Source of the DNA: a plasmid
Sequence record: NZ_CP031419.1
DNA length: 64,000 bases
Strand: one strand, 5' to 3'
Made by a program: the position numbers and the translations under genes. Within the stretch, counting starts at the first letter, position 1, and each line of letters starts with the position of its first letter. Below the pieces are notes generated by a model that ran no database searches, had not been told where the DNA came from, and was given only the letters and a program-made list of their open reading frames with translations. Shown piece by piece: positions 13,899 to 64,000 of the stretch.

Positions 13899-13903
13899 GT
13901 GGA

Positions 13904-34021: not shown

Positions 34022-35893
34022 TCAACGTCCGCGTCCGGGAGTCCGCTGCGGGGCAGCGCTGGTATTTGCTCTACTGGCCGGGGTCATCGACGTACCGGCG
34101 GCCGCGGGCGCTCCGGCAGACGGGGTCAGCGGTCCGTTCGCCGCCCGCAGCGCCTGTTCCCCGCGCCGGGCCTCTTGCAGCTGGGCGAAGGTTGGGCGCC
34201 CACTGCCGTTGCGGGCGGTAGCCGTCACCGTCGAGGTCTGGCTGCGTGCTACGGGGGCGGTAGCTTCGGCGGCGCTGGCCTGCTGCACGTAGCGCAGGGC
34301 GGCCTCCACCACCGCGCCAGTCTTGCGAGGGTCACCGTTGGGAAGTGCGGCCCACTGCGGTGAGCCAACCTCTGGGATCTCCCCCCGCCGCATGGCAGCG
34401 CGCAGATACGGGCCTGCCCACGCCTGTACCGCGTCGACGCTCAGGCGATCCGCCGTGGATGGAAACCCAGGCTGCACAGCAGCCGCCTCCTGTTCTGCCA
34501 GCACATCAGCGCGCATAACACCGGGCAGGGTCTTGAGCTTGTCGGGACGGAATCCGGAGAACCGAACGTCTCCCGCCTCCACCACCGGCGCGCCCTGGAA
34601 CCCCATGTCCAGCAATCGCTGGCGTGCGGCCGAGTCCTGGGTGACATCGACGATCCGATAGTCGAACCCGAGATTGTCGAGGGTGCGCTTGGTGGCATCG
34701 CACTGCGGGCACTGCGGTTTGGTGTAGACGGTTATCTGGACGCCTTCGCCCGGCGCGATTGCGGTCTGTGCCATGGTCGTCTCCGGATTCTGTTGGTTCT
34801 GCACTGATTTCGCGGGCGCACTCTCGATCCCGAGTTCGGTCTCTGCTTCCGGGGCCCACTGCCACCGCCAGCCTGTCTCGGGGTCGAACGACCGCCGGAA
34901 CACGCCCTCCATGGCCTTCTCGGCCGCCGCGATGGCCTCGTCCGCACCGGGGAATCCGCGCTCGAGTTGCTCATCGGTGACGGGCACAAACTCGTCGAAG
35001 TCGTGCCCGAGATCGAAGTGGTTGCTGGCGTCCTTGCCGGTCGCCGCTTCCACGACGAGCACTTCCCCCACACGCCCGACCAGCATCCGCTTGACCTGGA
35101 GGGCGTGCTGGTAGCCCGCTGAATCGCGATCAGCGATGATGATTACTCGCCGTGCGCCGGTGAGCTGGCGGGCGTGCTCGAGCCGAAACGAACCGGCACC
35201 CATTGCATTGCAGGTGGCGAACCGCCCGGCAGCCCGAATTCGGTCGACGTCCTTCTCTCCTTCGGGGAGGTGGATGTCTTCGCCGTCAGCGATTGCCTGT
35301 ACCACCTCGGGAAGGTGATACAGCACCGGTTCGAACCCGCCTTTGCTCCACCGCCCGCCGGCATCCATCTTGCGCTGGAAGAACATCTTGTCGGTGCCGC
35401 GCTCGTGCGGAACGTGCATTCGCACGACCTCACCGAGGGGGCGTCCTCGGTGGTCGGTGTAGTGGTAGATCGCCGCCTGGTAGCGGGGACCAACCACCTT
35501 GCCGAGGCGTTCCTTCTTTGAGGGCTTCGGCGGAACCTGTGCGTCACGTCGCGCTTCCGGACCTTCCGGTCGCGGCGCTCGCGGCCGCGACGGCGAGCCG
35601 GGCGCGCGGACCCACTGCCGGTCCCAAATCGCTGATTCAGGCAGGCCGACCGTGGCCAGCACCTCGGTGTCGGAGCATCCGGTAAAGCATCTGACCACGG
35701 TCTTGTGCTTGTCCGCGTTGTAGATCAGGCCCAAGCTCGGATCATCGTCCTGATGCGCCGGGCAGTGGTACATCGTCCACTGCCCGCGCTTCGATGCTGG
35801 TCCTGCCGGGCGACTGTTCTCGAATGCCCACTCGTCGAGTGCCCGGGTGATCCGGGCAAACGACGGAGGTGAGCCGGGCTTATCAGTTCTCAC
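34022..35893 (-). CDS. DNA primase (zinc-finger plus TOPRIM) fused in frame to an NrdH/glutaredoxin-like domain
   Basis: CPAHQDD...CFTGCS zinc finger. TOPRIM segment RVIIIADRDSAGYQHA. NrdH-like ITVYTKPQCPQCDATKRTLDNLGFDYRIVDV (CxxC) with no intervening stop. Confidence 0.7.
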   Translation of the reverse strand: MRTDKPGSPPSFARITRALDEWAFENSRPAGPASKRGQWTMYHCPAHQDDDPSLGLIYNADKHKTVVRCFTGCSDTEVLATVGLPESAIWDRQWVRAPGSPSRPRAPRPEGPEARRDAQVPPKPSKKERLGKVVGPRYQAAIYHYTDHRGRPLGEVVRMHVPHERGTDKMFFQRKMDAGGRWSKGGFEPVLYHLPEVVQAIADGEDIHLPEGEKDVDRIRAAGRFATCNAMGAGSFRLEHARQLTGARRVIIIADRDSAGYQHALQVKRMLVGRVGEVLVVEAATGKDASNHFDLGHDFDEFVPVTDEQLERGFPGADEAIAAAEKAMEGVFRRSFDPETGWRWQWAPEAETELGIESAPAKSVQNQQNPETTMAQTAIAPGEGVQITVYTKPQCPQCDATKRTLDNLGFDYRIVDVTQDSAARQRLLDMGFQGAPVVEAGDVRFSGFRPDKLKTLPGVMRADVLAEQEAAAVQPGFPSTADRLSVDAVQAWAGPYLRAAMRRGEIPEVGSPQWAALPNGDPRKTGAVVEAALRYVQQASAAEATAPVARSQTSTVTATARNGSGRPTFAQLQEARRGEQALRAANGPLTPSAGAPAAAGTSMTPASRANTSAAPQRTPGRGR

Positions 35894-37830: not shown

Positions 37831-39018
37831 CTAGCGTCCGGGCCGCACCAGCCCGGAAGTGGGCGAGTACTTCATCGGGAACAGGCCCGCCAGGGTCGCC
37901 GCAAGCTCTCGATAGGCCAGCACCGTGCGCGGGTGCAGCAACTGCGGATCGATGACGCCGCCCTCGTCGAGGTGACGGTCATAGGGGATCTCGTGCACGG
38001 CGTGGACCAAGTGGTTGAACCACCTCGTTGCCGCGCTCGCGTCGAACATTCGCCGGCCGGGCTGCTGATGGGAGATCACGACGACGGTCCGGGACAGCAA
38101 GCCCCGGTACAGCCAACGGCGCTCGCCCCGTTCGTCCAGCAATGGGTCCCCGGTCACGGGGTCCTTCGCGAAGGCGGTGTGCAGGTACTCGACCGCCGCC
38201 ACCGCCTCGTCGGCGGAATCCTTCTTGGCGTCGAGGGGGATCACCAGCGCATCGGCCTCGTCGAGAACGGCCTGGGTGGCTGGGTGGGTGATCCCGGTTC
38301 CGCAATCGGCCAGCATCAGCGGGAAGTAGTCGCTCGCCAGGTCGACCAGCTGGCGGTAGTCGTGGGCGGAGAAGCTGTCGGCCGTCGCCGGATCGGCTGC
38401 CGAGGCCAAGATGTCCAGGCCCGCCGGTGTCAGTTGCGTGTGAGTGCGCACGTCCTGCACCCGCCGCGGCCGCGGTCCGGCCAGCAGGGTCAACGCCGAG
38501 GACTCGGTGCGCGCCGTTGTCCGGCGTGCCAGGTTGCCCCTATCGGGATTGACGTCGAACGCGATTACGCCATCGGTCCGGCAGGCTGCGAAGGCGTTGC
38601 CGATCCCCATGGCGGTCGTTGTCTTCCCTGATCCGCCCTTGAGCTGTACCACTCCGATGCGGAAATCGGACTCGATCGCGGTGCGGATTCGCCGGTCGAG
38701 CTCCCTGGCGCGCACTTCGGCGGGGCTCTCTCCGAGGTTCAGCGTTTTGCCCGACATCAGATAAAGCGCACGCCGCCAACCCGATCCCGGAGCTGGGCGA
38801 ACCGGGTCTCGGCGCCAGTCCCGCGACTCTGGGGTAACCGCCGCTGACCGATCAGACGACGTGTGCCGCCACTCGCCGGCATGCGCCCGCTGGAGCGGGC
38901 TGACGCCCTGTGCGGGAACGCCGTCTGTCCATAGCCCGCTGTCGGCGCGCCCTCCGTAGGCCGCGGTGTCCGTACTCCACGGCGCCACCACGGGCGGGGG
39001 CGAGTACTGCTTGGCCAT
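37831..39018 (-). CDS. ParA/MinD-family ATPase with N-terminal extension
   Basis: Deviant Walker A VQLKGGSGKTTTAMGIGNA. Confidence 0.75.
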   Translation of the reverse strand: MAKQYSPPPVVAPWSTDTAAYGGRADSGLWTDGVPAQGVSPLQRAHAGEWRHTSSDRSAAVTPESRDWRRDPVRPAPGSGWRRALYLMSGKTLNLGESPAEVRARELDRRIRTAIESDFRIGVVQLKGGSGKTTTAMGIGNAFAACRTDGVIAFDVNPDRGNLARRTTARTESSALTLLAGPRPRRVQDVRTHTQLTPAGLDILASAADPATADSFSAHDYRQLVDLASDYFPLMLADCGTGITHPATQAVLDEADALVIPLDAKKDSADEAVAAVEYLHTAFAKDPVTGDPLLDERGERRWLYRGLLSRTVVVISHQQPGRRMFDASAATRWFNHLVHAVHEIPYDRHLDEGGVIDPQLLHPRTVLAYRELAATLAGLFPMKYSPTSGLVRPGR

Positions 39019-39035: not shown

Positions 39036-39488
39036 TCATGAGGTTTTCGATGAGATCTTGTCCTCGGTCGACTCCGATTGGGTGATCCGCTTGTCGCCCT
39101 CGGCCTTCTCGGCGACGGCCTCTTCGGCCCAGTCCGACCACGCCGGGTAGGACTCCGCTTCGGCCCACCATGCGTTGCGCGCGTCCTGCCACACCTCGAC
39201 AGAGCAGCTGAACGAGCGCCGAGGCCGAGTGCCGGCCTGATCCGGGGGTGTGCGCCGACCAGGCGGCAATCGGTCCGGGGCGGGCTCGAACGTGGAGATA
39301 CCGAGGTTCTGGCGCGTGCGCGCGGTCTTCTCGGCGAGCGCCGCCTCGAGCCATCCGGTCCAGGTCGGGTACTGGCGGAGTTGCTGGCCCCACTTCTTCT
39401 TGGCGGCTCCCCACACCTCGTCACTGCACGAAAAGTTCTCTCGGCTCCATCGACGTCCCCCCGCCGCGTCGGACTGTGTGTCGGCCAC
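39036..39488 (-). CDS. hypothetical protein with duplicated Trp-rich module
   Basis: NFSCSDEVWGAAKKKWGQQLRQYPTWTGWLEAALAEK and SFSCSVEVWQDARNAWWAEAESYPAWSDWAEEAVAEK are tandem repeats. Confidence 0.55.
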   Translation of the reverse strand: MADTQSDAAGGRRWSRENFSCSDEVWGAAKKKWGQQLRQYPTWTGWLEAALAEKTARTRQNLGISTFEPAPDRLPPGRRTPPDQAGTRPRRSFSCSVEVWQDARNAWWAEAESYPAWSDWAEEAVAEKAEGDKRITQSESTEDKISSKTS

Positions 39489-39770
39489 AGGCTCTTCCTT
39501 CCTCTCGACGGCGTCGCAGGCTGGGTCGCACCTGACCGCAGCCGCAGGGTTCCACTGTATCTAAAGGTGCGTCCACACCTAATGGTCCGAGTACCCCCGC
39601 CGAGCCTTTCGGATCTATCGCACCATTAGATACATTAGAGGCATACCAAGTTTACCTGCGGCAACCGTCGCAGGTGAAACCGCAAAACGGATGTTTTAGA
39701 TACATCAGCTACAACGGAACCATTGGGGCTGGTGACCATCGCCGCCCCGCCGCCGAACAAGGAGGCGAAC

Positions 39771-42700
39771 ATGGCGCGGCGAATGCGAAGAATGCAGAGC
39801 GAAGGCCAGCTCAGCCTGGAGGCTCTATGGGGTGACCCGGACCCGGCCCCCTCGACCGTCGACAACCGAAAGGACAATGAGCGCGATGATCATCGATCAG
39901 GTCAGGACGTACTACTCGACGTACCTGCCACAGACGACCGCAGCACTGGACGACTCGGAGGAGTTCTTCCAGGAGCTGAGCGACCAGATCAGCCAGCGGG
40001 TCGAGCAGATCACGGCGCAGCTCGAAACGAACGCGATCGTGCCGGGGCAGGACTACCTGGAGCGAGTGGGAACGCTGAACACCCTGCGAGCGCAGGCACT
40101 GGAATCGGCGCTGGCGGAGCTGCTGTACTCGACACCCCCGGAAGTCGACGAGGACCCGGAACCCAGCCAGACCGAACGCGACCTGCTGGTGATGCAGCAG
40201 GAGGAACGCGCGGTGGATCAGCGGCTGGAGATGGCACCGGGCAGCCCGGAGGCGATCGAGTGGGATCGCCGGTATCCGCATCTGGTCGAGGAAGTGAACT
40301 GGATGCTGACCGATCACGGGGAGCTGACGGTCGAGCAGAAGCGCGAGCAACTGGCGCAGATCATGCACCGGCAGGACGAAGCGAGGGCCCGGCTCCGTCC
40401 GTAGAGCCCCGCACCGGCGAAGGTGGGGACGTCCTTCCCGCCGGGGAACGGCATTACCTGATCGACGGGCTAGAAGTCTGGGAAGCAACCGCCAGCGACT
40501 CCCAGGAGGGCCGATGGGAACGTGCCCGCAGCATCGGTACGGCCACCAGCGCTGAGGAAGCCATCCGCTTGGCGCAGGCCGACGCAATGTTCACCCCGGC
40601 CGAGCTGGCAACGCTGCGCTGCAAGGTCGAGGACGAGGCGTACTCCTACGGCGGGTACAACCGCCCACTGGAGATCTTCAACCCCGGCACCGCCCCTCGC
40701 TACTTGACCGAGGGGCCGCTCAAGTCGTTGTCCACCGGGGAGCGGTTCGGCCCGACCTGGCTTCTGGTGGAGTCCTACCTGCGCGCGCACCCGGACCTCT
40801 ACGACGAGACACCCACTTCGGTGGAAGCCCGCCAGGCGCAACGCAGTGCGGCCGTCAAATCGCTGACCACCGAGGCCGCCGAGCACTTCCGGGCCGGCCG
40901 ACTCGCCCGCGCGCGAGAACTCGTCGATCAGGCCGAACTCGCCAACCCCTACGAGACCGGGACATACGACGGCATCCGCGCCCGCATCGACCGGCTCGCA
41001 GGGATCGTCGACGAACTCGGGCTCTCGCGACCGCAGGAACGGTTCGACGGGCTGCCCGGGGGCAAGCAGGCACAGGTCAGCGTCGGCGACCACAGCTTCT
41101 CCCTCGAGCCCCGAGGGGGCGGCCGTTGGGTCGTCTACCCGAAAACCGGCGGCGTCGAGGACCAATCCACACTGGCGGAACCCATGCCGACCAGCGAGGT
41201 AATGCCGCGCATTCGGACCTACCTGGCAACTCTCTCCGCCCCGCAGAACCCCGAGCCAGCAGCTCACGCTCCCAGCGCTGCGACGACTGCCGCAGAACCG
41301 CGCAATCCCGCGACCCCAGGGGCTGCCCCGGAGGAACCGCTTCTGATCGTCATCGAGCACACCGCGGAGGGCACGCTCGTCCGCAACACCGACAAGAACA
41401 ACCTCGAGCTCCGGCAGGCCCTGCATGACGCCAAGTTCAATTGGTCACGCCCGCAAAAGTTCTGGTACCAGCGGCGGGCAACAGATTTCGCGGTGCGTAC
41501 CCGTCGAGTCGGTTACCTCCGGGCCTCGCTGACCAGGCTCGGGTTGCCCTTCACGGAGACGAATCCGGCGAGTGCCTTGTCCGCCACCGCGGCCGCGGAC
41601 GCCGTTGAGGTCGCGGCTCCGGAGAGAGCGCACGAGCAGCGAACACCCACTGAAACCCAACGTGATCCGGCAGCGGAGTCGGTGGCCTCCGCCGAGGTTT
41701 CACCGACGGCTTCGAGCACGCCGACGCCGCCTTCACTGTCACCTGAAGGCACTGCTAACACCACGACGGCGACATCGACGGCGGTTCCTACCTCCCGAAC
41801 CGAACCGCCCGCCGACCAGCCGGACAGCGCCGCCGGAATTGCCGAAGTCCCGGCACCCGAACAATCGCCGGCTCCGAAGGTCGAGGTGCCACGCTCGACC
41901 CAGCGCCGCATCGAGGCGAACCTGGCAGCGATCAGGACTCTCCAGCTGGTCGAGGCCGAGAGCCGTCAGCCGACCGACGCCGAGCGGGAAGTGCTGGCGA
42001 AGTGGACCTCGTGGGGTGCTGCTCCCCAGATCTTTGACGCTGAGCGCGAAGAGTTCCGTTCGGACGCCGAGTCGCTGCGGGCCCTGATCGGCGAGGAAGG
42101 CTGGAAACAAGCCAATCGCACCGTCCTCAATGCCCACTACACCGATCCGATGATTGTTCGGGCGATGTGGGACCACCTTCGGGCACTCGGGTTCACCGGC
42201 GGTCAGGTACTCGAGCCAGGTTGCGGGGCGGGGGCCTTTATCGGGCACGCTCCGCAGGCGGCATCGATGACCGGCATCGAGCTGGACTCCACCACAGCGC
42301 GCATCGCGCAAACGCTGTACCCGCGCGCCAACATTCGCGTCGAGTCCTTCGCGGACACCCGGCTCCCGGAGGGGCACTTCGACGCCGCGATCGGAAACGT
42401 GCCGTTCTCCTCGGCCCGCCTCCACGACCCGGTCCACAACGCCGGCGAGCACACCATGCACAACCACTTCATTCTCAAGTCGCTCGCGCTGACCAAGCCC
42501 GGCGGCGTGGTGGCGGTGGTGACCAGCTCGTTCACGATGGACAACAAGAACCCCGCTGCTCGCCGCGAAATCGCCGCGCAAGCGGACTTTCTGGGCGCAA
42601 TCCGACTTCCCAACGGTACGCACCGACGGGTCGCGGGCACCGACGTGCTCACCGACATCCTGATCCTGCGCCGCCGCGACGGTGAAGCCCGCCGACCCGG

Positions 42701-45700
42701 CGGGCCCTTCGAGCTAGCCGTCACCGCCGAGCTCCCGCTGACCCGGGGACAAGGGGAGACAGAATCGGTACTGGTCAACGAGTACTTCCTCAACAATCCG
42801 GAGATGGTGCTCGGTGACCTGCGGGCGGGCACCAGCGTTTACGGTGGGCTCGCGGTCGAAGTGCTCGGCCGCGGCGACCTGGAGCAGCACCTGCGCGACG
42901 CGCTGGCTCGAATCGCCGAACGCGCCCTGTCCGAGGGCATCGCCCATCAGCCCAGGGAGCTGGCCAGTGGCGAGCGTCGGGCAGCCGCAGCCGCTCCCGG
43001 TGATCCGAACGAATTCCCTGGCCATCTGCGCACCACGGCGAGCGGATTCGAAGTGCTGCACACCGATGGCACCTACAGCGAGCTGAAGGTGCCCAGCACC
43101 CAAGCCGAGGAGCTGCGGGCACTGCTCGGCTTGCGAGACACCGCGGTTGACCTCTTGGAAAACGAGGCCGCCAACGCCGAGGACTCCGACGAGATCGAGG
43201 CCCTGCGCACGCGCCTCAACCAGCGCTACGACCGCTACGTCGAGCGCTATGGAGCGATCAACCGATGCTCCTGGCATCCGACCGGCCGTGTCGACGACGC
43301 CGGGGAACCGGTGATGTCCGTACGCCGGCCGCCGGTGATGCGGGTGTTCCGCGACGATCCGCACGCGCCGGTTGTGCTGGCCCTCGAGGACTACGACGCC
43401 ACCACCGACAGCGCGGTGAAGATGGCCATCATGCGTCAGCGCGTCGTCGCGCCGCGCAGTCCGCGCCTGGGTGCGGATACTGCCGAGGACGCGGTGGCGA
43501 TCTGCCTCGACACCCACGGCAAGATCGATCTCCCGGTCATCGCGGGCCTGCTCGGCGTAGACGACGACGAAGCCCGCGTCCAATGCCGAGGTCTCATCTA
43601 CCCCGACCCCGCCGACAACGGCCGGTACGTTCCAGCGGCGGAATACCTCTCGGGGAACGTGCGGGTCAAACTCGATCAGGCCCGCGAGGCGGCTGCGGCG
43701 AACCCGGAGACCTACAGCGACAACGTCACCGCGCTCACCGCGGTCATCCCGCCCGACCTCGGACCGGCCGAGATCGACGCCCGCCTGGGCGCGGTGTGGA
43801 TCGAAGCGCCCGACGTGCAGGCGTTCCTCAACGAGATCCTCAACGATGACACGATCACCGTCGAGCACACCAAGGCGGGGGAGTGGAAGGTCACCGGCGG
43901 CCGTCGCGGCATTCTGTCGACCCAGGAATTCGGCACTTCCCGCGTCCCGGCGCCCAAACTCGCCCAGGCCCTGCTGCGGCAGGCCCCGATCCGCGTCTAC
44001 GACCCGGACGAGAACGGTGAGGCTCGCATCCCCAACCCCACCGAAACCGAAGCCGCCAACGAGAAGGCCGAGCAGCTCAACGAGCGGTTCTCCGAATGGG
44101 TGTGGGAGAACCCGGTCCGGGCCGCACGCCTGAGCGAGGAATACAACCGGCGCTTCAACAACCTGGTGCTGCGCAACTACGAGGCCGACGGCAAGATGCT
44201 CAGTCTGCCCGGCCTGTCCAAGGTCTACACCCCGCGTCCGCACCAGCGCGCCGCGGTGGCTCGCATGATCGCCGAACCGAACGTGGGCCTCTTCCACGCG
44301 GTCGGCGCTGGCAAGACCCTCGAAATGGCGATGGGCGTCATGGAGCTCAAACGCCTGGGCCTGGTGAACAAGCCTGCCATCATGGTGCCCAACTCCATGC
44401 TCGACCAGTTCGCCCGCGAATTCCTCCAGGCATACCCGCAGGCGCGCATCCTTGCCGCCGGCACCGAGGATCTGGCCGGGGAGAAGCGGCGGCAGTTCGT
44501 CGCTCGCGCGGCCACCGGGGACTGGGACGCGATCATCCTGACCCGCGGGTCATTCCAGCGCCTCGAGGTCTCCCGCGAGACCGCGCACTGGTACTTCGAT
44601 CGTGAGATCGAGCCCCGGCGCCAGTACCTGGCGGAACTGATGTCCGGCAGCGCGAAACGCAGCGTCGTCAAGCGTATCGAAGACGCGATCCTCAAGTCCG
44701 AGGAGAAGCTGAAGAAGAAGCTCGGCGGTCCCACCGATCCGGGCATCACCTTCGAGCAGTCCGGCATCGACTACATCGTGGTCGACGAGCTGCACGACTT
44801 CAAGAATCTGGCTACCGACACCCAGATCGAGTCCGCCGCCATTGCGGGCAGCCAGCGGGCGCAGAAGCTGCACATGGTCGTGGAGTACCTGCGCGACAAG
44901 CACAACGGTCGCGCCATCACCGGCGCCACGGCCACCCCGCTGGCGAACTCGATCACCGAGGCGTACGTCGTGCAGCGCTACCTGCGCCCGGACCTGCTCG
45001 AAGAGGCCGGAATCCGCAACTTCGACGAGTGGGCGGCCACCTTCGGCAAGACCAAAACCGAGCTGGAGATGTCGGTCGACGGCAACTCCTGGAACCTCAA
45101 GACCCGGCTCGTGGGCTTCCGCAACGTTCCTGAGCTGCAACGCATGTTCCATGTCGCCGCCGACGTGAAACTGCCCGAGGATCTGAACCTCCCGGTGCCC
45201 AAGCTCGCCCGCCGTGCCGACGGGCAGCGTGCGCCGGAGGTCATCTCGGTGCCAGCCACCGAGACCCAGCTCGAGTACGTCCGCGACCTCGGGCACCGCG
45301 CCCAGATGGTGAAATCGCGGGCGGTCGACCCGACCCGCGACAACATGCTCAAGATCTCCTCCGACGGCCGCGCCGCAGCGCTGGATCTCCGGCTGGTCAA
45401 GTCGCTCGGCCTCACCCCTGGCGCCGCAGAAGAACAGGGGAGCCCGACGCTGGACACCGCAGAGGGAGCCGCCATTGCCGGATATCTCCACTCGAAATCC
45501 CCGAGTCCGTCTACAGCGAGGTATGTCGCACTGTACGCAGCGCGATCACGCCACGAACCGCAGCGCCAGGAACCGCAGGAGATTGCCGAGGAAGAGTTCG
45601 GTCTCAAGCTCGAGGCGGCGGCGGACTGGATGTTCCAGAAGTGGCAGGCCGCCAAGGATCAGGTCTACCTCGGCCGGGATGGGCAACCCCACGCCCGCCG

Positions 45701-47057
45701 AGGCGGGCTCGTCGTCGCGTTCTGCGATCTGGGCACCCCCGGTGAGGACTGGAACGCCTACGACGAGCTCAAGACGAAGCTCATCGCGCGGGGCGCTCCG
45801 CCGGAGCTGTTCGCCTACATCCACGACGCGAAGAACGACAAGGGCAAAGCGGCGCTGTTCACCAAGGCCCGAAACGGCAGCATCCAGTTCTTGTTCGGTT
45901 CCACGTCCAAGATGGGCGTCGGCGTGAACATCCAAGACCGCATGGTCGCCATGCTGCACGTCGACTGCCCTTGGCGGCCCGCCGATATCGAGCAGCGCGA
46001 CGGCCGCGGCATCCGCCAGGGCAATCAGAACGAGGAGATCGCGGTTGGCCGAGTCGTCACCGAAGGCACCTTCGACGCCCGAATGTGGGCGGCCCAGGCG
46101 CGCAAGGCGGCCATGGTCAATCAGTTCATGAAGGGCTCTCTGACCGCCCGCGAGATCGACGACATCGGCGACGCGGCCCTCAACGCCAACGAGGCCCTCG
46201 CTATCGCCAGCGGCAACCCCCTGGTGCTGGAGAAGGCCGAGATCGACATCGAGGTCACCAAACTCGAACGTCTGCGGCGCGCGCACCAGCGCAGCCAGTC
46301 CATGCTGCAAATCCGCATCCGTGATGCCAACGACGCGATCCCCAAACTGGAGGCCGAGATCGACGCCTACACCCGGGCGATCGAGCACCGCAGGCCAACC
46401 AAGGGCGATGCCTTCGCCGCCAAGGTCAGCGGACGCTTCTACGACCACCGCGGCGACGCCGGCGACGCCTTGGCCGCCCGGCTGCTCAAGCTGATCGAAG
46501 ACCCCCGGGCGGTGTGGAAGGAGTTCGAGGACCACGGAGTGGCCGAGATCGCTGGCTTCACCTTGGACGCCCGCAACGTCCCGACGGGCCGCGAAGCCAG
46601 GGTGTCGGTGGTGTTCTCCGACATCGGCGACGATGTCTACGTCACGCTCGACAAGGCGACGCTCCAGAAGGGCGGGACCGCCGTGATGCTCCGCCTGGAG
46701 AACGCCGTCAACGGCTTGGACAAGCGGCTTGAGGTTGCCACCGGGCGGCTCGAAACCGAGCGCACGGAACGAGAGCGCTCCGAACTCCGCCTCGGCAAAC
46801 CGTTCGAGCACAGCGAACGGCTGGATGCGCTCCGGGAACGACAGAAGGAGATCAACAAAGAGCTGCTCGGCAGCAAGGAAACGGAGACCGAGAACGCCTC
46901 GACCGATCCGGCGACGGCGCCCGACGAGGCCGAATCCATCCGGTCGGCCGCAATGCACGACGCCGCAGCAATGGTTCACCAGATGGGAGGTGCCGCAGTG
47001 GTCAACAGCCCCAGTGGGATCACGATCATCAGCGATCGGGGCGGGCGGGCTCGGTGA
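39771..47057 (+). CDS. giant N6-type DNA methyltransferase / SNF2-family helicase (P1 DarB-like); true start unresolved
   Basis: Methyltransferase motif I GQVLEPGCGAGAFIG and motif IV NVPFS. Helicase motif I HAVGAGKTLEMAMG, motif II VVDELHDFKN (DExH) and motif VI QRDGRGIRQGN. Its frame is clearly coding only from about 40404 onward. The 39771-40400 portion overlaps the real alternate-frame gene above. Confidence 0.8.
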   Translation: MARRMRRMQSEGQLSLEALWGDPDPAPSTVDNRKDNERDDHRSGQDVLLDVPATDDRSTGRLGGVLPGAERPDQPAGRADHGAARNERDRAGAGLPGASGNAEHPASAGTGIGAGGAAVLDTPGSRRGPGTQPDRTRPAGDAAGGTRGGSAAGDGTGQPGGDRVGSPVSASGRGSELDADRSRGADGRAEARATGADHAPAGRSEGPAPSVEPRTGEGGDVLPAGERHYLIDGLEVWEATASDSQEGRWERARSIGTATSAEEAIRLAQADAMFTPAELATLRCKVEDEAYSYGGYNRPLEIFNPGTAPRYLTEGPLKSLSTGERFGPTWLLVESYLRAHPDLYDETPTSVEARQAQRSAAVKSLTTEAAEHFRAGRLARARELVDQAELANPYETGTYDGIRARIDRLAGIVDELGLSRPQERFDGLPGGKQAQVSVGDHSFSLEPRGGGRWVVYPKTGGVEDQSTLAEPMPTSEVMPRIRTYLATLSAPQNPEPAAHAPSAATTAAEPRNPATPGAAPEEPLLIVIEHTAEGTLVRNTDKNNLELRQALHDAKFNWSRPQKFWYQRRATDFAVRTRRVGYLRASLTRLGLPFTETNPASALSATAAADAVEVAAPERAHEQRTPTETQRDPAAESVASAEVSPTASSTPTPPSLSPEGTANTTTATSTAVPTSRTEPPADQPDSAAGIAEVPAPEQSPAPKVEVPRSTQRRIEANLAAIRTLQLVEAESRQPTDAEREVLAKWTSWGAAPQIFDAEREEFRSDAESLRALIGEEGWKQANRTVLNAHYTDPMIVRAMWDHLRALGFTGGQVLEPGCGAGAFIGHAPQAASMTGIELDSTTARIAQTLYPRANIRVESFADTRLPEGHFDAAIGNVPFSSARLHDPVHNAGEHTMHNHFILKSLALTKPGGVVAVVTSSFTMDNKNPAARREIAAQADFLGAIRLPNGTHRRVAGTDVLTDILILRRRDGEARRPGGPFELAVTAELPLTRGQGETESVLVNEYFLNNPEMVLGDLRAGTSVYGGLAVEVLGRGDLEQHLRDALARIAERALSEGIAHQPRELASGERRAAAAAPGDPNEFPGHLRTTASGFEVLHTDGTYSELKVPSTQAEELRALLGLRDTAVDLLENEAANAEDSDEIEALRTRLNQRYDRYVERYGAINRCSWHPTGRVDDAGEPVMSVRRPPVMRVFRDDPHAPVVLALEDYDATTDSAVKMAIMRQRVVAPRSPRLGADTAEDAVAICLDTHGKIDLPVIAGLLGVDDDEARVQCRGLIYPDPADNGRYVPAAEYLSGNVRVKLDQAREAAAANPETYSDNVTALTAVIPPDLGPAEIDARLGAVWIEAPDVQAFLNEILNDDTITVEHTKAGEWKVTGGRRGILSTQEFGTSRVPAPKLAQALLRQAPIRVYDPDENGEARIPNPTETEAANEKAEQLNERFSEWVWENPVRAARLSEEYNRRFNNLVLRNYEADGKMLSLPGLSKVYTPRPHQRAAVARMIAEPNVGLFHAVGAGKTLEMAMGVMELKRLGLVNKPAIMVPNSMLDQFAREFLQAYPQARILAAGTEDLAGEKRRQFVARAATGDWDAIILTRGSFQRLEVSRETAHWYFDREIEPRRQYLAELMSGSAKRSVVKRIEDAILKSEEKLKKKLGGPTDPGITFEQSGIDYIVVDELHDFKNLATDTQIESAAIAGSQRAQKLHMVVEYLRDKHNGRAITGATATPLANSITEAYVVQRYLRPDLLEEAGIRNFDEWAATFGKTKTELEMSVDGNSWNLKTRLVGFRNVPELQRMFHVAADVKLPEDLNLPVPKLARRADGQRAPEVISVPATETQLEYVRDLGHRAQMVKSRAVDPTRDNMLKISSDGRAAALDLRLVKSLGLTPGAAEEQGSPTLDTAEGAAIAGYLHSKSPSPSTARYVALYAARSRHEPQRQEPQEIAEEEFGLKLEAAADWMFQKWQAAKDQVYLGRDGQPHARRGGLVVAFCDLGTPGEDWNAYDELKTKLIARGAPPELFAYIHDAKNDKGKAALFTKARNGSIQFLFGSTSKMGVGVNIQDRMVAMLHVDCPWRPADIEQRDGRGIRQGNQNEEIAVGRVVTEGTFDARMWAAQARKAAMVNQFMKGSLTAREIDDIGDAALNANEALAIASGNPLVLEKAEIDIEVTKLERLRRAHQRSQSMLQIRIRDANDAIPKLEAEIDAYTRAIEHRRPTKGDAFAAKVSGRFYDHRGDAGDALAARLLKLIEDPRAVWKEFEDHGVAEIAGFTLDARNVPTGREARVSVVFSDIGDDVYVTLDKATLQKGGTAVMLRLENAVNGLDKRLEVATGRLETERTERERSELRLGKPFEHSERLDALRERQKEINKELLGSKETETENASTDPATAPDEAESIRSAAMHDAAAMVHQMGGAAVVNSPSGITIISDRGGRAR
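39877..40404 (+). CDS. acidic hypothetical protein in a different frame from the track's giant ORF
   Basis: GC3 about 88% with typical actinobacterial codon usage (CAG/GAG/CTG/GTC). The overlapping giant-ORF frame has GC3 about 40% over the same span. GAAAGGA RBS before the ATG. Confidence 0.55.
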   Translation: MSAMIIDQVRTYYSTYLPQTTAALDDSEEFFQELSDQISQRVEQITAQLETNAIVPGQDYLERVGTLNTLRAQALESALAELLYSTPPEVDEDPEPSQTERDLLVMQQEERAVDQRLEMAPGSPEAIEWDRRYPHLVEEVNWMLTDHGELTVEQKREQLAQIMHRQDEARARLRP

Positions 47058-47077
47058 CCTTGACGATCACCTATCCG

Positions 47078-47118
47078 CATACGGTGCGGCGGCCTGCGCG
47101 GCCGCACCGTATGCCACG
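47078..47118 (+). terminator. perfect 14-bp inverted repeat after the giant gene
   Basis: GCATACGGTGCGGC [GGCCTGCGCGGCC] GCCGCACCGTATGC. Confidence 0.45.
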
Positions 47119-47172
47119 TTGTTGCTGGTGGGAGTGGGAAATGTGGTTGCGGGGTGTGTGAGGATTGTCGGT

Positions 47173-48039
47173 ATGCCATTGCTGCGCGTCGCTGTCCCGA
47201 ACAAAGGTTCTCTGAGCGAATCGGCTCTGACGTTGCTCACCGAGGCCGGGTATCGCCTACCGCGGGTGCGGAACAAGGAGTTGAACTGCTTCGATCCCGA
47301 GAACGAGATCGAGTTCTTCTTCCAGCGGCCCCGCGATATCGCGGTGTACGTGGGCGCGGGAACCCTGGATCTGGGGATCACGGGCAAGGATCTGCTCGAC
47401 GACGCCGCCGCGCCGGCGGAGTCGGTTCTCGACCTCGGGTTCGCCCGGTCGACGTTCTATTTCGCGGCGCGTCCGGACGGGCCGAAGTCGGTGGCGGACC
47501 TGGCGGGCCGGTCGGTGGCGACGTCGTATCCGGAACTGGTGCGCAAGCACTTGGCCCAGGCGGGGGTGTCGGCCAACGTCGTGGTGTTGCAAGGCGCGGT
47601 GGAGAACGCGGTCGCCCTCGGCTTGGCGGATGCGATCGCCGATGTGGTGGAGACCGGGACGTCGTTGGAGAACGCGGGCCTGGTCACCTTCGGTGAGCCC
47701 CTGATGAGGTCGGAGGCGGTGCTGATCCGCAGTACCACGGCGGAGTGGACCGATGAGCGGGCCGAGGCGGTGACGGTGATGCTGGACCGCCTCAACGGGG
47801 TGTTGACCGCGCGCCGGTACGTGATGGTCGATTACGACTGCCCGCGGGCGGTGCTCGATGCGGCGTGTGCGTTGACGCCGGGGATCGAGTCGCCGACGGT
47901 GTCGCCACTGGCGGACCCGGATTGGGTGGCGGTGCGGTCGTTGGTGGAGCGCAAGAGCATCAACCGCACCATGGACGACCTCAAGAAGCTCGGGGCCTCC
48001 GCGATCCTGGCGACCGAACTGGCTGCCTGCCGCCTATGA
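47173..48039 (+). CDS. hisG: ATP phosphoribosyltransferase (long form)
   Basis: MPLLRVAVPNKGSLSE...; 288 aa with HisG-typical length and motifs. Confidence 0.9.
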   Translation: MPLLRVAVPNKGSLSESALTLLTEAGYRLPRVRNKELNCFDPENEIEFFFQRPRDIAVYVGAGTLDLGITGKDLLDDAAAPAESVLDLGFARSTFYFAARPDGPKSVADLAGRSVATSYPELVRKHLAQAGVSANVVVLQGAVENAVALGLADAIADVVETGTSLENAGLVTFGEPLMRSEAVLIRSTTAEWTDERAEAVTVMLDRLNGVLTARRYVMVDYDCPRAVLDAACALTPGIESPTVSPLADPDWVAVRSLVERKSINRTMDDLKKLGASAILATELAACRL

Positions 48040-48053
48040 CCCACGCACCCGTG

Positions 48054-48317
48054 TCATCGCTGGTGTTGGCCGCCGTCGGCGCGGCGCTGGACGGCGGTGG
48101 CGATGAGTCGTATATCCCGCCCGGCGCCGTGTGCGGCAGCAACGGCTTCGCGTAGCGCGGCGATTTCCTCTGGCCGCAGCGCGGCGAGCGGCACATCCTC
48201 GCCGATCACCTGGAGCGCCTGTTGGGAGGCGGTTTCCAGCTCGTCGGCGCACTTGACCAGCTGGGCAGTGAGCGGAAATCTCGCCTTGTCTGCGGTCAGC
48301 AGAAAGTCGTCAGCCAC
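48054..48317 (-). CDS. hypothetical protein
   Basis: GTG start, 87 aa, GC3 about 75%. No domain recognised. Confidence 0.3.
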   Translation of the reverse strand: MADDFLLTADKARFPLTAQLVKCADELETASQQALQVIGEDVPLAALRPEEIAALREAVAAAHGAGRDIRLIATAVQRRADGGQHQR

Positions 48318-48326
48318 GGCGCAAAC

Positions 48327-49685
48327 CTAGCGCCCCCGACCGCCCATGGAGTTCACTTCCGCGGTATCGGGGGCCCGGATCGGCCACAGTGCTGGTACAC
48401 AGCTTGATTCGTCGCGCTTACGCCGGATCTCCGGAATCTGGGCCCCCACGGGCCCGGATTCACGATCGGTGGTCAGCGTGTCGAACACCTCGACCGCGCA
48501 CCGGTCGGTGTAGGCCGCGACCTGATCAACGACCACCCGGACCCGGGCGGCGTCGGTGTCGGCGCGCAACCACGCCGCGGCGAAGCGGGGTTCGAGCAGG
48601 TCGGGGGCGGCGGTGAGGAGGGCGTCGAAGACGGTGTCGATGACGTGGCGCTGCCACGCCCGGCGGGCCCGCAAAGCGGGTGCACGGAGCACGAAGTGCA
48701 GGTGCACGGCTTTGAGTACCGCGATTTCGGCGCGGACGTGGGCGGGCACGACCAGATCGGCGGTGAACCGGTGGTGCGGGCCGAGTCCGGTGCCGGCTTT
48801 TGTCGCCTCTGTGATCGCGGTGGTGAACCGGGCGGTGAGCGCGTGCTCCAGCGCGGAGATCGCGGCCAGGTCGCCGGGCCCGGGGCGGGTGAGGGCAGCG
48901 ACGGCGGGCAGGCCCAGCAGGTCGTTGGTGTGGGCGTCGATGTCGTCGACGGCCACGGTGGTGAAGTGGCCGTGGGCGAGCTTGGCGAACTCGGCGCGCT
49001 CGGACGCAGACGTGAGCGGGGACAGGGTGATCGCACCGGTGCGCAGCCCGGCGGTCAGGTCGGTGACAGCGTTGGCGATGTCGTCCGCTGTGTCCATGAT
49101 CTGCGCCTCCACGCACAGCCGCCGATCCGGTGCGCCGTGGCGGACCCAGGCCAGGGTGTCGGCGTCGTCGGGGTAAGCGCCGAACTTGCGGGCCGGGCCC
49201 GGGGTCCACGGGTATTTGCAGGTCGCGTCCAGGCTGGCGCGCGTCAGGTTCAACCCGCCACCGGTAGCGGTGCTGGGTTCGAGTCGGGTGAGGATGCGCA
49301 GGGTCTGGGCGTTGGCCTCGAACCCGAGCCCGTGGGCGCGGGCCTTGGTGCGCAACGCCATCTCGCCGTTGTGCCCGAACGGTGGATGTCCGAGATCGTG
49401 TGCCAGGCAACCGGTTTCGACCAGCGTGGGGTCGGCGCCGACGCCGAGGGCGATGCGGCGGCCGAGGGTGGCCACGGTCAGGGAGTGGGTGAGCCGGTTG
49501 TGGGGTACCGGCCCGGCGTCGGGTTCGTCGACCTGGGTGATGTTCGACAGTCGGTGCAGCGCGCCGCTGGCGAGCAGCCGGCCGCGGTCGTGGTCGAACA
49601 CGGTGGCCGGATCGCGGTAGGGGTGGCCGTGTTCGGGGATGCGGCGAGCCCGGTCGTGGTGGCTGTAGCCGGTCGGGGTCGTCAT
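48327..49685 (-). CDS. dgt: dGTP triphosphohydrolase-like HD-domain protein
   Basis: HD motif HSLTVA...AHDLGHPPFGH. Confidence 0.85.
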   Translation of the reverse strand: MTTPTGYSHHDRARRIPEHGHPYRDPATVFDHDRGRLLASGALHRLSNITQVDEPDAGPVPHNRLTHSLTVATLGRRIALGVGADPTLVETGCLAHDLGHPPFGHNGEMALRTKARAHGLGFEANAQTLRILTRLEPSTATGGGLNLTRASLDATCKYPWTPGPARKFGAYPDDADTLAWVRHGAPDRRLCVEAQIMDTADDIANAVTDLTAGLRTGAITLSPLTSASERAEFAKLAHGHFTTVAVDDIDAHTNDLLGLPAVAALTRPGPGDLAAISALEHALTARFTTAITEATKAGTGLGPHHRFTADLVVPAHVRAEIAVLKAVHLHFVLRAPALRARRAWQRHVIDTVFDALLTAAPDLLEPRFAAAWLRADTDAARVRVVVDQVAAYTDRCAVEVFDTLTTDRESGPVGAQIPEIRRKRDESSCVPALWPIRAPDTAEVNSMGGRGR

Positions 49686-49704
49686 CGGCGTGGTCCTCTC
49701 GTCG

Positions 49705-50458
49705 CTATGGGGTGATCGGCTCGTCGACGGTGGTCGACGCGGCGAACAGGGCCTCGATCTGGGCGGGGTGCAGGTAGCGGGTGATCAGTGGATCGGTCCG
49801 GAACCGGGCGGCCGGGACGCCGAGGAACCGGTGCTCGAGGTACATCAACCGCCGAAACACCAGCCGGTAGATGTGTGCGGGGACGCCGTGGCAGGAGACG
49901 GTCAGCAGCTGCCCGGCGTGGTGGTGGCGGCGGAGTTCGAGGGTGCTGATCAGCCGGTTGGTGTCGAGCAGCCGCAACTGCCCGGCGACGTCGACGACGA
50001 GGTTGTCCATCGGCGGATCGATGAAGTCCGGGATCAGCGACGCTTCGGCATCGAGGGCGGGCACCGGCGCGGTGTCGGCCAGCAGCCCGCGCACCACGCC
50101 GGTGAACACGGCGAGCTGGTCGAGGGTTTGCCGCGGGAGCCGGTGGCGCGCGGCGATGCGCAGCGACCAGGCGGGCGCCACCGGCACGAAGTCCTTGACC
50201 ACCACCGCCTCGCACAACCGCGCGGACGGGGCGGGCAGCAGCAGGCGCTCGTTCGGGATCAGGCCGGGCAGGACCGGATCGAAGATCGCCCGCAGGTATC
50301 GGTACTCGCGGCGCACCTTGGCCACGGTGAGTTCGGGGGCGTCGGGCCGGAACACCTGCATCACCACCGGGCTGCCGGGCCGGTGGTAGACCGTGGAATG
50401 GTTGCCCTGCCCGATCGCCCGATGCCGCCGGGCCGTCCCGATCACCGCGGTCATGCCC
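49705..50458 (-). CDS. kinase-like protein (P-loop-like GQGNHSTVY)
   Basis: Real part of track ORF 49705..50994. Start MTAVIGTARRH. 8-nt overlap with the upstream GT gene. Confidence 0.55.
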
Positions 50459-51784
50459 GCACCGCCTCGTGGGAGCCGATGACCTGGGCGTAGCCGGTGG
50501 CCATCTGCTCCACCCCGAACCGGGTGGCACTGGCCCGCCCGTTGCGCGCCAGGCGCCGGTGCAGTGCGGTGTCGGTGAGCACGCGTGCCAGGGCGTCGGC
50601 GAGCGCGCCGGGATCGCTCGGTGGCACCAGCAGCCCGGAGCGGCCGTGGTCGATGTAGTCGCGTGGTCCGCCGTGGTCGGTGGTGATCACCGGGGTGCCG
50701 GCGAGCATCGCTTCGATGTTGGCGTAGCCGAACGCTTCCGGGCAGCGCGACGGCAGTACCGCGACCGTCGCGGCCCGGTAGCAGGCCGCGACCTCGACCG
50801 GGGAGAGCTCGTCGAGCAGGAACACCCGCCCGGCCAGGTCGCTGGCGTTGATCAGATCGGTCAGCTCCCGGGTGTAGTCCAGGGCGCGGGTGTCGTGCAT
50901 GTCGTGGCCGTTGAACACCGCGAACGCCTCCCCGGCGACACCGCGGGCGGACAGGATGCGCAGGGCGGCGATCAGATCGGCGTGGCCCTTCCACGCCACC
51001 CGCCGCGCCGAGAGCAACACCATCGGCCCGTCCGGAAGCTGGTTGCGGCGCGCGAGGGCGGCGAAGGCGTTCTCGGCGGCGGCCGCGCGCATCCGGGACT
51101 CGAACTCGGCGATGTCCATGCCGTTGGGCACCGTGTGGACCCGCTCGCCGGTGATTCCGGCCTTGGCCAGGTGTTCGGCCACCGCGGTCGACACCGCGAC
51201 GATCCGCACCGAGTGCTCGGTGACCTCGAGACGGCGGCGCAGGTAGTCGAACCGCCGCTCGGCGCCGGCGAGATCGTGCACCACCCCGGTCACGTTCAGG
51301 CGGCCGACGCCGGCCGCGGCCAGCCGACCGGACTGTTCGGCTTTGAGCACCGACACGATCGGATTGATGTTCTGCGCCAGCAGATCCGGTGTATCGGCGG
51401 TGGCGATGACGTAGGCGTACTGCCGCGCCAAACCCGCATACACCGGATTTGCCGGGTCGTCGATGGCGTCCTCGTAGAAGTGGCGCACCCGCGCGGGGTC
51501 CTTGCCGCCGTCCGCACCGCCGAGGTACTGGCCGAACCCGCTCCGAATCCCTTGGGCCAGCACCACGGTGCCGTCCGGGGTGCGCAACTGGTAGGCGCCG
51601 GGGCGGGTGGCGCCGGTCTGGGTGATCGCCCAGCGCGTCCCAGGATGCCGGGCGGCCAGCGCGGCGAGCAGATGGTGGGTGTGGGCGACCAGACCGGTGT
51701 GGCGACAGGGTTTTCGCTGTCCCGTGGCCACGACGGTGCCGTGCATGTCGTAGGTGAGGATGTGCATCGCCGACGGGAATTCCA
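50451..51784 (-). CDS. glycosyltransferase family 4
   Basis: EAFGYANIEAMLAGTPVITTDHGG (GT4 EX7E region). Start MEFPSAM with a GGAGGACGGT RBS. Confidence 0.8.
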
Positions 51785-51990
51785 TACCGTCCTCCACGTT
51801 CCGAGACGACCGGATCAACAACCCCAGCAACCGGTTTCGGTGAACCAGGTCACATCAGGACACCGCGCGTATGGCCGGTCGCGGCAGTGGTGCGCTTGGT
51901 GCGTTTCGGTGCGTTTCGGTGCCGAGAGCGCACCGCGGTCGGTACCCTCGCCGCATCGACGCCGACGATCCGGTCCAGGGGGCGAGGTGG

Positions 51991-53361: not shown

Positions 53362-53396
53362 CACATTCGCGCGGGGGTGGGGAATCCCGGGCAGGT

Positions 53397-53735
53397 TCAG
53401 AGGTCGTGGACGTCGTCGACGCGCGCCTCGGGGTCCACGTATACCAGGATTCCCAGGGCAGCACCCACGCGCAGGGCGAGGCTCCGAGCCTTGGCTTCAG
53501 GCAGGTCGGCGAAGCCTCGGCAGATCGCCGACAACGGCTGATCGAGAGTCGAGTGGCAGGTGATATGTCCCTCGTCGTGGAGCGCATCCCGCACCATCTG
53601 CGACCGGCGGCCCGGCCGCAGCCTCATGAGGTTTCCGGGGCGGAAGATGCAGGTACTGCACTTGTCCTCACAGACGCGAACCTCGTTGTGCGAGTACACA
53701 ATAGCGGTTCGCGCATCGTCCTCCGCGGTGTCCAA
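53397..53735 (-). CDS. Cys-rich hypothetical protein
   Basis: 112 aa with Cys-rich CEDKCSTC...CHST motifs. Confidence 0.4.
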   Translation of the reverse strand: MDTAEDDARTAIVYSHNEVRVCEDKCSTCIFRPGNLMRLRPGRRSQMVRDALHDEGHITCHSTLDQPLSAICRGFADLPEAKARSLALRVGAALGILVYVDPEARVDDVHDL

Positions 53736-53839
53736 ATGCCCGCATACCTCCTGTTGCGATGGCCGGTCCGGTTCCGGGAGGCCACGATGGCAATCCAGCG
53801 TGCCAGCTTCCTGGTGCGACCGGTACCGGGAGGCCGGGA

Positions 53840-54907: not shown

Positions 54908-54933
54908 GCGCGCGAGTCTGCTCGGCGGTGTGG

Positions 54934-61458: not shown

Positions 61459-61459
61459 C

Positions 61460-63980: not shown

Positions 63981-64000
63981 CGAGAGTGCTTCCGAACCAC

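Follow-up and report, generated by a model that had tools for sequence, protein, structure and literature searches.

A DarB-family methylase-helicase gene on a Nocardia plasmid

We analysed 64,000 nucleotides (nt) of the plasmid record NZ_CP031419.1 (the window), all of it DNA of the pNF1 family of Nocardia plasmids. On the plus strand, one open reading frame (ORF) runs from an ATG at position 39771 to a stop codon ending at 47057; both the ORF list and the translation show it unbroken, with 2,428 amino acids (aa) plus stop. A sequence-only reading of the window had taken this giant ORF for a relative of phage P1 DarB, in which a gamma-class methyltransferase (MTase) is followed by an SNF2-type helicase, and had described its N-terminal region as having long disordered segments. 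The uninterrupted ORF and both enzymatic domains were confirmed. Part of the supposedly disordered region was found to lie across a second gene, resembling tnpV, that is read in another frame.

All the motifs quoted in that reading (GCGAGAF...NVPFS, GAGKT, DELHDFKN and QRDGRGIRQGN) are present in the order given. Within the MTase, LEPGCGAGAF (motif I, aa 814-823) stands about 60 aa ahead of GNVPFS (motif IV, aa 875-880), which is the gamma-class order. The helicase motifs follow as GAGKT (aa 1512-1516), DELHDFKN (aa 1672-1679), TATP (aa 1720-1723) and QRDGRGIRQGN (aa 2075-2085). BLASTP against P1 DarB (YP_006479.1, from NC_005856) gave three collinear blocks: the methylase (31% identity over 194 aa, P1 DarB aa 88-278, E=4e-24), helicase lobe 1 (24% over 471 aa, P1 DarB aa 779-1224, E=3e-20) and helicase lobe 2 (26% over 139 aa, P1 DarB aa 1477-1610, E=1e-10). 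Residues 608-2405 matched phrog_10089, "DarB-like antirestriction", with E=0 and 1296 bits, and annotated DarB-like proteins of Bcep22-type, Ralstonia and Erwinia phages were 32-34% identical in tblastn over ~1,670 aa (aa ~715-2388).

Domain and fold searches supported both the MTase and the helicase. Pfam matches were marginal but above cutoff for Methyltransf_25 (27.2 bits, cutoff 27), Helicase_C (26.3, cutoff 23.5) and ResIII (23.4, cutoff 22.5); SNF2-rel_dom fell below threshold, and Pfam gave no match for the C-terminal region (aa 2183-2428). PADLOC recognised single domains only, namely a mad2-type methylase (1.6e-14), BrxHI (7e-12) and BrxH/DrmD-type helicases, and the best NCBIfam matches were likewise single-domain and far below threshold (14-36 bits, cutoffs 500-1100). 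An AlphaFold2 (AF2) model of aa 700-1140 showed a helical bundle followed by a Rossmann-type fold (predicted local distance difference test, pLDDT, 86.1; predicted template modelling score, pTM, 0.81). With this methylase model, Foldseek retrieved PacII M, HsdM, EcoKI M, M.TaqI and M.BseCI from the PDB at 1e-11 to 1e-8; helicase lobe 2 matched PDB sequences of ISWI-type SNF2 ATPases (1.6e-5).

That the giant protein is a DarB-family methylase-helicase is virtually certain. Such membership is ordinary: Iyer et al. 2017 (PMC5512222) described LPD36 with an adenine MTase and SWI2/SNF2 dyad in polyvalent proteins, with DarB as the archetype, plasmid DarB-like methylase-helicases were catalogued in 2017, and a 95% identical gene is already in RefSeq. 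The module formed by the pre-MTase domain and the MTase matched 10,301 representative clusters, with proteins of up to 7,876 aa. Homologues carry PF28553/PF28554/PF28555; at the position of the LPD36 motif GxG[GAS], the window protein has SWGA and the proteobacterial homologues have GYGA or GFGA.

A tnpV-like gene nested in the giant ORF

The description of the N-terminal region as long disordered Ala/Pro/Thr segments needs correction. Two low-complexity tracts are present. The one at aa ~601-705 is rich in Ala, Pro, Thr and Ser. It is an ordinary linker; a candidate second nested gene beneath it (+1 ORF 41572-42087) was rejected because no frame there shows a signal in G+C content at third codon positions (GC3). 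The tract at aa ~36-211 is rich in Gly, Ala, Arg and Pro, and it overlaps the tnpV-like gene, which is read in the +1 frame with respect to the giant ORF, encodes 175 aa and has a start of its own. This nested frame encodes a normal-looking helical protein that is conserved in Nocardia, Rhodococcus and Paenarthrobacter. Since a +1 frame of high GC3 encodes a conserved protein here, the "disordered" tract is a real gene read in its other frame.

We call the gene tnpV-like because its matches to the Pfam family TnpV (PF14198) are consistent but sub-threshold: in three genera, E values were 0.069, 0.0011 and 2.6e-4 and scores 13.6, 19.3 and 21.4 bits, all below the gathering threshold of 27 bits. 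In each genus the match is to the C-terminal half of the profile, which represents a Tn4451-type transposon protein of unknown function. PGAP, the NCBI annotation pipeline, names Arthrobacter-type copies "TnpV protein". Known tnpV genes are free-standing, whereas the nested gene lies wholly inside another gene in a different frame. The Paenarthrobacter copy also matches phrog_24764, a PHROG of unknown function (5.6e-6), and NCBIfam contained no family for either the nested protein or the shadow frame.

To compare the arrangement across Actinobacteria, 80 loci were collected from Micrococcales, Mycobacteriales, Propionibacteriales and Acidimicrobiia-type and Solirubrobacterales-type metagenome-assembled genomes (MAGs), and 76 of them were evaluable. 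The tnpV-like gene was present and in the +1 frame in 76/76 loci, with an overlap of 330-560 nt. Across these loci, GC3 in the overlap was 0.88 for the tnpV-like frame and 0.38 for the giant frame. The giant frame contained no stop codon across the nested gene in any of the 76 loci; the third frame contained 3-15. The number of stops to be expected was estimated by shuffling synonymous codons within the nested gene. The shuffle predicted ~1.3 giant-frame stops per locus; with the most permissive locus of each of 17 clusters (<60% identity), the joint probability of finding none was ~1e-14. As an empirical baseline, 12% of segments of equal length in the bodies of the giant genes were stop-free in the geometrically equivalent frame.

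From the tnpV-like stop codon to the conserved pre-methylase domain, the spacer measured between 8 and 1484 nt. Its 17 different lengths were all 2 mod 3, and in 61 of the 76 loci it contained no ATG, GTG or TTG. In those 61 loci, initiation of the giant protein must therefore take place inside the nested gene or upstream of it.

Substitutions between close relatives followed the frame expected of each segment. In the overlap, 12/15 and 12/13 differences from two 94%-identical plasmids were synonymous for the tnpV-like protein, and every one of them altered the amino acid read in the giant frame. For the methylase-helicase body, the same comparison gave 220 synonymous and 49 non-synonymous substitutions in the giant frame. 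The gene body had about twice the synonymous rate of the nested gene (Poisson P=0.012), as expected from dual constraint. Amino-acid identity across cluster representatives did not discriminate between the two frames (0.32 vs 0.33).

Three loci of the Arthrobacter type, with high G+C, ~60% identity to the query and a nested tnpV-like gene, lie on two contigs of Vibrio cholerae strain 35D (L007, L016) and in a Xanthobacteraceae MAG (L049). They most likely represent contamination or mis-binning of public assemblies.

A conserved peptide with a clamp-like motif precedes the nested gene

Upstream of the nested gene, the giant frame opens with a short peptide that is conserved in 74/76 actinobacterial loci. 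The N-terminal peptide, MARRMRRMQSEGQLSLEALWG in the window, encloses a motif resembling those that bind the beta clamp (GQLSLEALWG in the window). The peptide starts with ATG in 67 loci and GTG in 7, with a Shine-Dalgarno (SD)-like sequence ahead of it in 65/74. Its motif has the form G-Q-[LVAM]-[STE]-[LFI]-[DE]-x-[FL]-[WLF](G) and lies 5-14 residues past the start, after a basic stretch. Among 38 distinct DNA versions, entropy at the three codon positions of the motif core was 0.66/0.38/1.40; the excess at third positions indicates a translated peptide under purifying selection. The upstream peptide differs from that of CP026745 by three substitutions, all synonymous in the giant frame, and from that of pNF1 by 2 synonymous and 2 non-synonymous ones.

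A motif of this kind also occurs where the gene start is not in dispute. Homologues of ~1,700 aa on proteobacterial plasmids begin with MP(K/I)ASSP(A/G)QLSLFD... or MAQDDPFTLDLFG... (...FTLDLFG); these loci have normal GC3 and no nested gene, and the motif is unambiguously the N-terminus of the protein. Other variants in the family are QLDLF, QLTLDLWG, QLEFDLWG, QLTLAFLWG and QLSFDEFLW. In several Microbacteriaceae-type and related loci (L020-L022, L047, L053, L061, L064, L072 and others) the motif is doubled, as in GQLEFDLWG ... GQLSFDLF, with the copies ~25-40 residues apart in the ~200 nt that precede the nested gene.

The consensus for beta-clamp binding is QLxLF, with QLSLF as its full-consensus form (PMC4549789). 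In the RK2 initiator TrfA, clamp binding is by way of QLSLF (PMC8034659), and the validated clamp motif of mycobacterial ImuB is QLPLWG (PMC10421592). The family peptides share with these motifs the short form Q-L-x-[LF]...[LF]-[WFL](G) and a terminal position by a flexible linker; some members have QLSLF or QLDLF exactly, and binding is putative throughout. The window form, QLSLEALWG, is two residues longer than that of ImuB.

The start of the giant protein

Public annotations place the start of the giant protein elsewhere. The pNF1 gene is NFA_RS29935 in RefSeq, a "helicase-related protein" (WP_050768369.1, 2,159 aa) that starts near codon 267, and the nested gene is annotated separately as a "hypothetical protein" (NFA_RS28775). 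PGAP uses the same model for CP026745 and other Nocardia genomes; a start in the vicinity of codon 267 is the consistent choice of PGAP and of other gene callers alike. According to such a model, a giant protein of ~2,160 aa starts past the tnpV-like gene and the first ~266 codons are untranslated; the frame is then open on account of high G+C, and the upstream peptide is a DNA or RNA element or a separate micro-ORF. Besides the preference of the gene callers, the GC3 of the giant frame in the window counts against a long gene (0.36-0.49 for codons 1-200, 0.8-0.9 in the remainder), and the Nocardia version of the locus (L006) offers 13 possible starts between the tnpV-like stop and the conserved domain. 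A late start does not, however, account for a frame that is open at every locus against the 12% baseline, for spacers that are always in frame, or for a peptide whose third-position variability is typical of coding sequence. Where the spacer is as short as 8 nt or lacks a start codon, initiation must be upstream; any ribosome initiating at ATG 39771 must continue to 47057; and in the proteobacterial homologues a motif of this kind indisputably forms the N-terminus. We thus regard the RefSeq-type model as improbable. A programmed -1 frameshift near the end of the tnpV-like gene, yielding a fusion of the TnpV-like protein to the methylase-helicase with the upstream peptide unrelated, is less probable still and in our view can be given very little weight. 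It would fit the +1-to-0 relation of the frames, which is invariant across loci, and two database proteins (P0037, P0044) begin in the tnpV-like frame and go on in the giant frame. Yet a canonical X_XXY_YYZ heptamer was found in the tnpV-like frame in 0/76 loci, and the two proteins change frame at different positions and are therefore probably frameshifted pseudogenes or assembly errors. A frameshift has, moreover, no need of a giant frame open over the whole nested gene, and it leaves the conserved, translated-looking upstream peptide unexplained.

We consequently favour, with considerable confidence, the long gene model with the tnpV-like gene nested inside it. Judged from the sequence, ATG 39771 is most likely the translation start. 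RefSeq models systematically truncate the giant gene, and the N-terminal motif is thereby lost from protein databases. Scans of 39400-40000 and 46900-47500 found no sigma-70-like promoter sites and one weak terminator-like hairpin (39474-39490).

An insert confined to Nocardia

Between the dual-coding region and the pre-MTase domain, the window protein carries an insert with homologues in Nocardia only, among them a solo protein of 641 aa in N. tenerifensis (P0032). In a Pfam search with a limit as loose as E<=10, aa 267-710 remained without a match. The suggestion that the segment EHTAEGTLV...FNWSRPQKFWY is DUF3560 is unsupported by that search. The AF2 model of the insert was mediocre (pLDDT 64.7), and Foldseek found no match in the PDB with E<1. 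In two Nocardia homologues (P0008, P0010) the start of the insert is swapped for another N-terminal domain, MWEVVPREVPDGSIPYTHWAYFDDE..., which indicates ongoing domain accretion upstream of the methylase.

Plasmid context

The complete 2,428-codon ORF is present in a single piece, at 94-95% aa identity, on four plasmids of N. farcinica and N. cyriacigeorgica. One of these is pNF1 of N. farcinica IFM 10152 (94.6% aa identity over 2,428 codons), which shares the backbone synteny but has other cargo past the stop codon. Synteny of the backbone DNA with the related plasmids is at ~95% identity, and a contig of Nocardia neocaledoniensis is 99% identical in the region compared. MOB-suite typed the related plasmids as mobilisable, MOBP. 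The sequence-only reading had placed the giant gene downstream of relaxase, primase and ParA modules. Relaxase, Toprim and ParA-like genes are indeed nearby (Table 1), but the giant gene is transcribed divergently from the genes on the ParA side. The proteobacterial homologues sit among Toprim/DUF3991, ParB_N and SSB genes, and Samuel et al. (PMC11541004) found that the anti-defence islands of leading regions include darB genes and orphan methylases.

Table 1. Features of the giant gene and of the surrounding plasmid DNA (window coordinates).
Feature	Position	Strand	Basis or remark
Giant ORF, DarB-family polyvalent methyltransferase-helicase (long gene model)	39771..47057	+	2,428 aa plus stop
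SD-like AAGGAGG	39759..39765	+	5 nt before ATG 39771; read from sequence
Conserved N-terminal peptide MARRMRRMQSEGQLSLEALWG: basic stretch and beta-clamp-binding-like QLSLEALWG (aa 13-21)	39771..39833	+	found in 74/76 actinobacterial loci
Nested tnpV-like gene, 175 aa, +1 frame	39877..40404	+	own AAAGGA-N3-ATG start; GC3; conservation
Giant-frame reading of the overlap: Gly/Ala/Arg/Pro-rich linker, aa ~36-211	39876..40403	+	zero stops in 76/76 loci
Nocardia-specific insert, aa 255-650: helical domain, small beta domain, EHTAEGTLV-containing unit	40533..41720	+	absent from Rhodococcus and Paenarthrobacter homologues
Ala/Pro/Thr/Ser-rich linker, aa ~601-705	41571..41885	+	A+P+T+S fraction 0.62-0.68; no frame-specific GC3 signal
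Pre-MTase helical domain, aa ~710-783 (LPD36 / PF28553 WH_1 in homologues)	41898..42119	+	AF2 pLDDT >90; conserved in three genera
Gamma-class N6-adenine DNA methyltransferase core, aa 786-972: NAHYTDP, LEPGCGAGAF, GNVPFS	42126..42686	+	Pfam, PADLOC, P1 DarB, AF2, Foldseek
Conserved middle region, aa 973-1430 (PF28554 DUF8437 in homologues)	42687..44060	+	phage tblastn matches, phrog_10089
SF2/SNF2-like helicase lobe 1, aa 1431-1845: GAGKT, DELHDFKN, TATP	44061..45305	+	ResIII, BrxHI, P1 DarB
Helicase lobe 2, aa ~2012-2182, motif VI QRDGRGIRQGN	45804..46316	+	Helicase_C, ISWI-type ATPases, P1 DarB
C-terminal region, aa 2183-2428	46317..47054	+	phage/plasmid matches to aa ~2390; phrog_10089 to aa 2405
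ParA/ParB pair	5728-7508	+	neighbour genes
Integrase	8780-10072	-	neighbour gene
MobA/VirD2 relaxase	29315-30946	+	neighbour gene
Weak-Toprim/glutaredoxin/DUF2742 protein	34022-35893	-	neighbour gene
ParA-like ATPase	37831-39018	-	neighbour gene
Backbone/cargo junction	47058	.	megablast synteny with pNF1, CP086600 and CP133581 ends one base past the stop codon

The giant gene had also been called the last gene of the element. It is the last gene of the backbone block common to three of the four related plasmids, but plasmid DNA continues beyond 47058: of window positions 47000-64000, just 58-59 nt match pNF1, CP086600 and CP133581. The cargo at 47058-64000 is common to one plasmid only, N. cyriacigeorgica CP026745. 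It includes, all on the minus strand, genes for an HD/dGTPase-like protein (48327-49685), a GT4 glycosyltransferase (Pfam "GT4-conflict", 50451-51830), a WYL/WCX regulator (53840-54907), a 987-aa LD-carboxypeptidase fusion (56968-59931) and a radical SAM protein (62812-63897), and is possibly an island for defence or for modification of the cell wall. Window positions 47060-48300 do not contain the class I SAM methyltransferase found after the giant gene in CP026745. At the junction itself, PGAP annotates on the minus strand a 35-aa "ATP-binding / AAA family ATPase" fragment over the giant-gene stop (L001 22250-22357 and L002 30919-31026, corresponding to about 47030-47140 of the window), probably a recombination remnant.

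Several other genes in the window deserve mention. The minus-strand gene at 34022-35893 is an ORF of 623 aa with a weak Toprim domain, a glutaredoxin domain (2.4e-15) and DUF2742; CP026745 lists only a 123-aa DUF2742 protein, which could mean that in the relatives the gene is mis-annotated or has become a pseudogene. Directly after the relaxase, a 577-aa plus-strand ORF without a Pfam match (30943-32676) is conserved in pNF1 and CP026745; it may encode a coupling or transfer protein belonging to an actinobacterial transfer system that has so far escaped recognition. A "DNA cytosine methyltransferase" of the related plasmids maps by DNA similarity to 13772-16684 (plus strand), overlapping minus-strand ORFs at 13074-15583. 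The 970-aa plus-strand ORF at 13772-16684 has no Pfam match, and the cytosine methyltransferase is probably encoded in a different frame or on the opposite strand, in which case the plasmid has a second methylase.

Relation to known systems

P1 DarB (2,255 aa) shares with the window protein the collinear order of methylase and SNF2-like helicase, and both are encoded on mobile elements. The identity is low, and the differences are considerable. P1 DarB is a virion protein that is injected with the DNA and depends on DarA, Hdf, DdrA and DdrB; it lacks the ~700-aa N-terminal extension and the nested gene, and its ~650-aa C-terminal part is unmatched by the window protein. In contrast to the virion-delivered Dar system, the window and its relatives are plasmids with a relaxase and ParA/ParB, and the Pfam-scanned ORFs showed neither phage structural genes nor dar partners. 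The module at aa ~608-2405 resembles the dyad of Iyer et al., PHROG 10089 (Bcep22, BcepMigl, Pavtok) and COG4646, the "N12 class adenine-specific DNA methylase". In the DarB-like proteins of phages this module lies inside proteins of 3,000-4,600 aa with lytic transglycosylase and other domains, whereas in the window protein it is preceded by the clamp-like peptide, the dual-coding linker and the Nocardia-only insert. Iyer et al. (PMC5512222) mention no clamp motif, TnpV or overlapping genes. In the literature searched for a clamp motif or a tnpV overlap in DarB-like proteins, we found no description of the nested-gene arrangement, the resulting annotation truncation or the clamp-like N-terminus.

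A proposed function for the giant protein

Taken as a whole, the reading that we think somewhat better than evenly supported is that of a plasmid anti-restriction methylase-translocase, possibly clamp-tethered, encoded by the long gene. By analogy with P1 DarB, an anti-restriction role would be reasonably probable. Whether the N-terminal peptide binds the clamp is, to judge by its resemblance to known motifs, about an even question. Several points weigh against this reading. Strong as the likeness to clamp motifs is across the family, the window motif QLSLEALWG fails the strict penta- and hexapeptide clamp patterns, which are of the types QL[SD]LF and QLxLxL, and P1 DarB has no such N-terminal motif. 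Pfam recognised no type IV secretion system genes in the window. The mechanism of P1 DarB "has not been defined", and some anti-restriction effects of plasmid-borne darB were DNA-mediated artefacts (PMC11109961).

Two other functions were considered. The giant protein could belong to a module that defends host or plasmid against phages or competing elements, as a nuclease-less relative of Type ISP, BREX, DISARM or MADS; the partial PADLOC and NCBIfam matches to mad2, BrxHI, DrmD and DpdE point that way, as do the "GT4-conflict" glycosyltransferase and the WYL regulator in the adjacent cargo. Those matches are, however, confined to single domains and far below cutoffs (e.g. 36 bits vs 1100), no full-length match to MADS, BREX, DISARM or Dpd rises above cutoff, and the full-length match is to the DarB-like PHROG. 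No nuclease domain was found, PglZ, DrmA-C, Dpd and Mad partners were not found among the neighbours, and the adjacent cargo is not conserved with the giant gene, so that we consider a defence module distinctly unlikely. A role in plasmid replication or establishment seems a little less remote, though still unlikely: a clamp-associated translocase-methylase could mark or remodel new plasmid DNA and so affect copy number, partition or transcriptional timing. The likeness of the clamp-like N-terminus to the RK2 initiator TrfA, the ParA-like and Toprim-type neighbours and the undefined mechanism of DarB anti-restriction are in its favour. On the other hand, P1 DarB, which alone among the homologues has been characterised by experiment, is an anti-restriction factor, and the family is spread over polyvalent proteins of phage virions and conjugative elements that do not replicate plasmids.

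If the anti-restriction reading of the long gene is correct, the protein may work as follows. Its core comprises the helical pre-MTase domain, the gamma-class methyltransferase, the middle region, an SNF2-like translocase acting on double-stranded DNA and the C-terminal region, with the Nocardia insert added upstream. The basic, clamp-like N-terminal peptide would be tied to this enzymatic body by a linker of ~175 residues whose own sequence is unconstrained, and the DNA of the linker doubles as the tnpV-like gene, translated from an internal ribosome-binding site. The giant protein could be made on the plasmid or delivered with it. Its N-terminal motif would then dock it on the beta clamps of plasmid DNA that has just been made, for instance when the complementary strand is synthesised following conjugative entry, or when the plasmid replicates. 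As the SNF2-like motor moved the protein along the duplex, the methylase would modify adenines, and this methylation would shield plasmid DNA from restriction as P1 DarB shields co-injected DNA from type I systems. The TnpV-like protein, co-expressed from the same mRNA, might act together with the giant protein. The analysis itself establishes the domains and their folds, the homology to P1 DarB, the plasmid setting, the nested gene with the giant frame kept open across it, and selection on the N-terminal peptide at the protein level; we infer the translation start, clamp binding, processive methylation, anti-restriction activity and cooperation with the TnpV-like protein.

The most far-reaching version of this proposal is that, throughout Actinobacteria, the dual-coding 5' region specifies both a TnpV-like protein and the tether between a clamp anchor and the methylase-translocase, thereby coupling methylation to plasmid duplex synthesis. 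We put it forward tentatively, as a possibility that is more likely wrong than right. If true, it would be a bacterial counterpart of PCNA-tethered maintenance methylation and would give the DarB family its first concrete mechanism. It is rare in bacteria for a complete, conserved gene to be nested in another frame of a longer one and to be kept in at least 17 diverged lineages of one phylum. How DarB-type proteins find the DNA that they protect has been an open question since 1987 and was still termed undefined in 2024; the clamp-like peptide, which is common to the proteobacterial homologues, offers a specific and cheaply testable idea of how they might do so. If the clamp interaction is true, griselimycin-type clamp binders could interfere with plasmid establishment.

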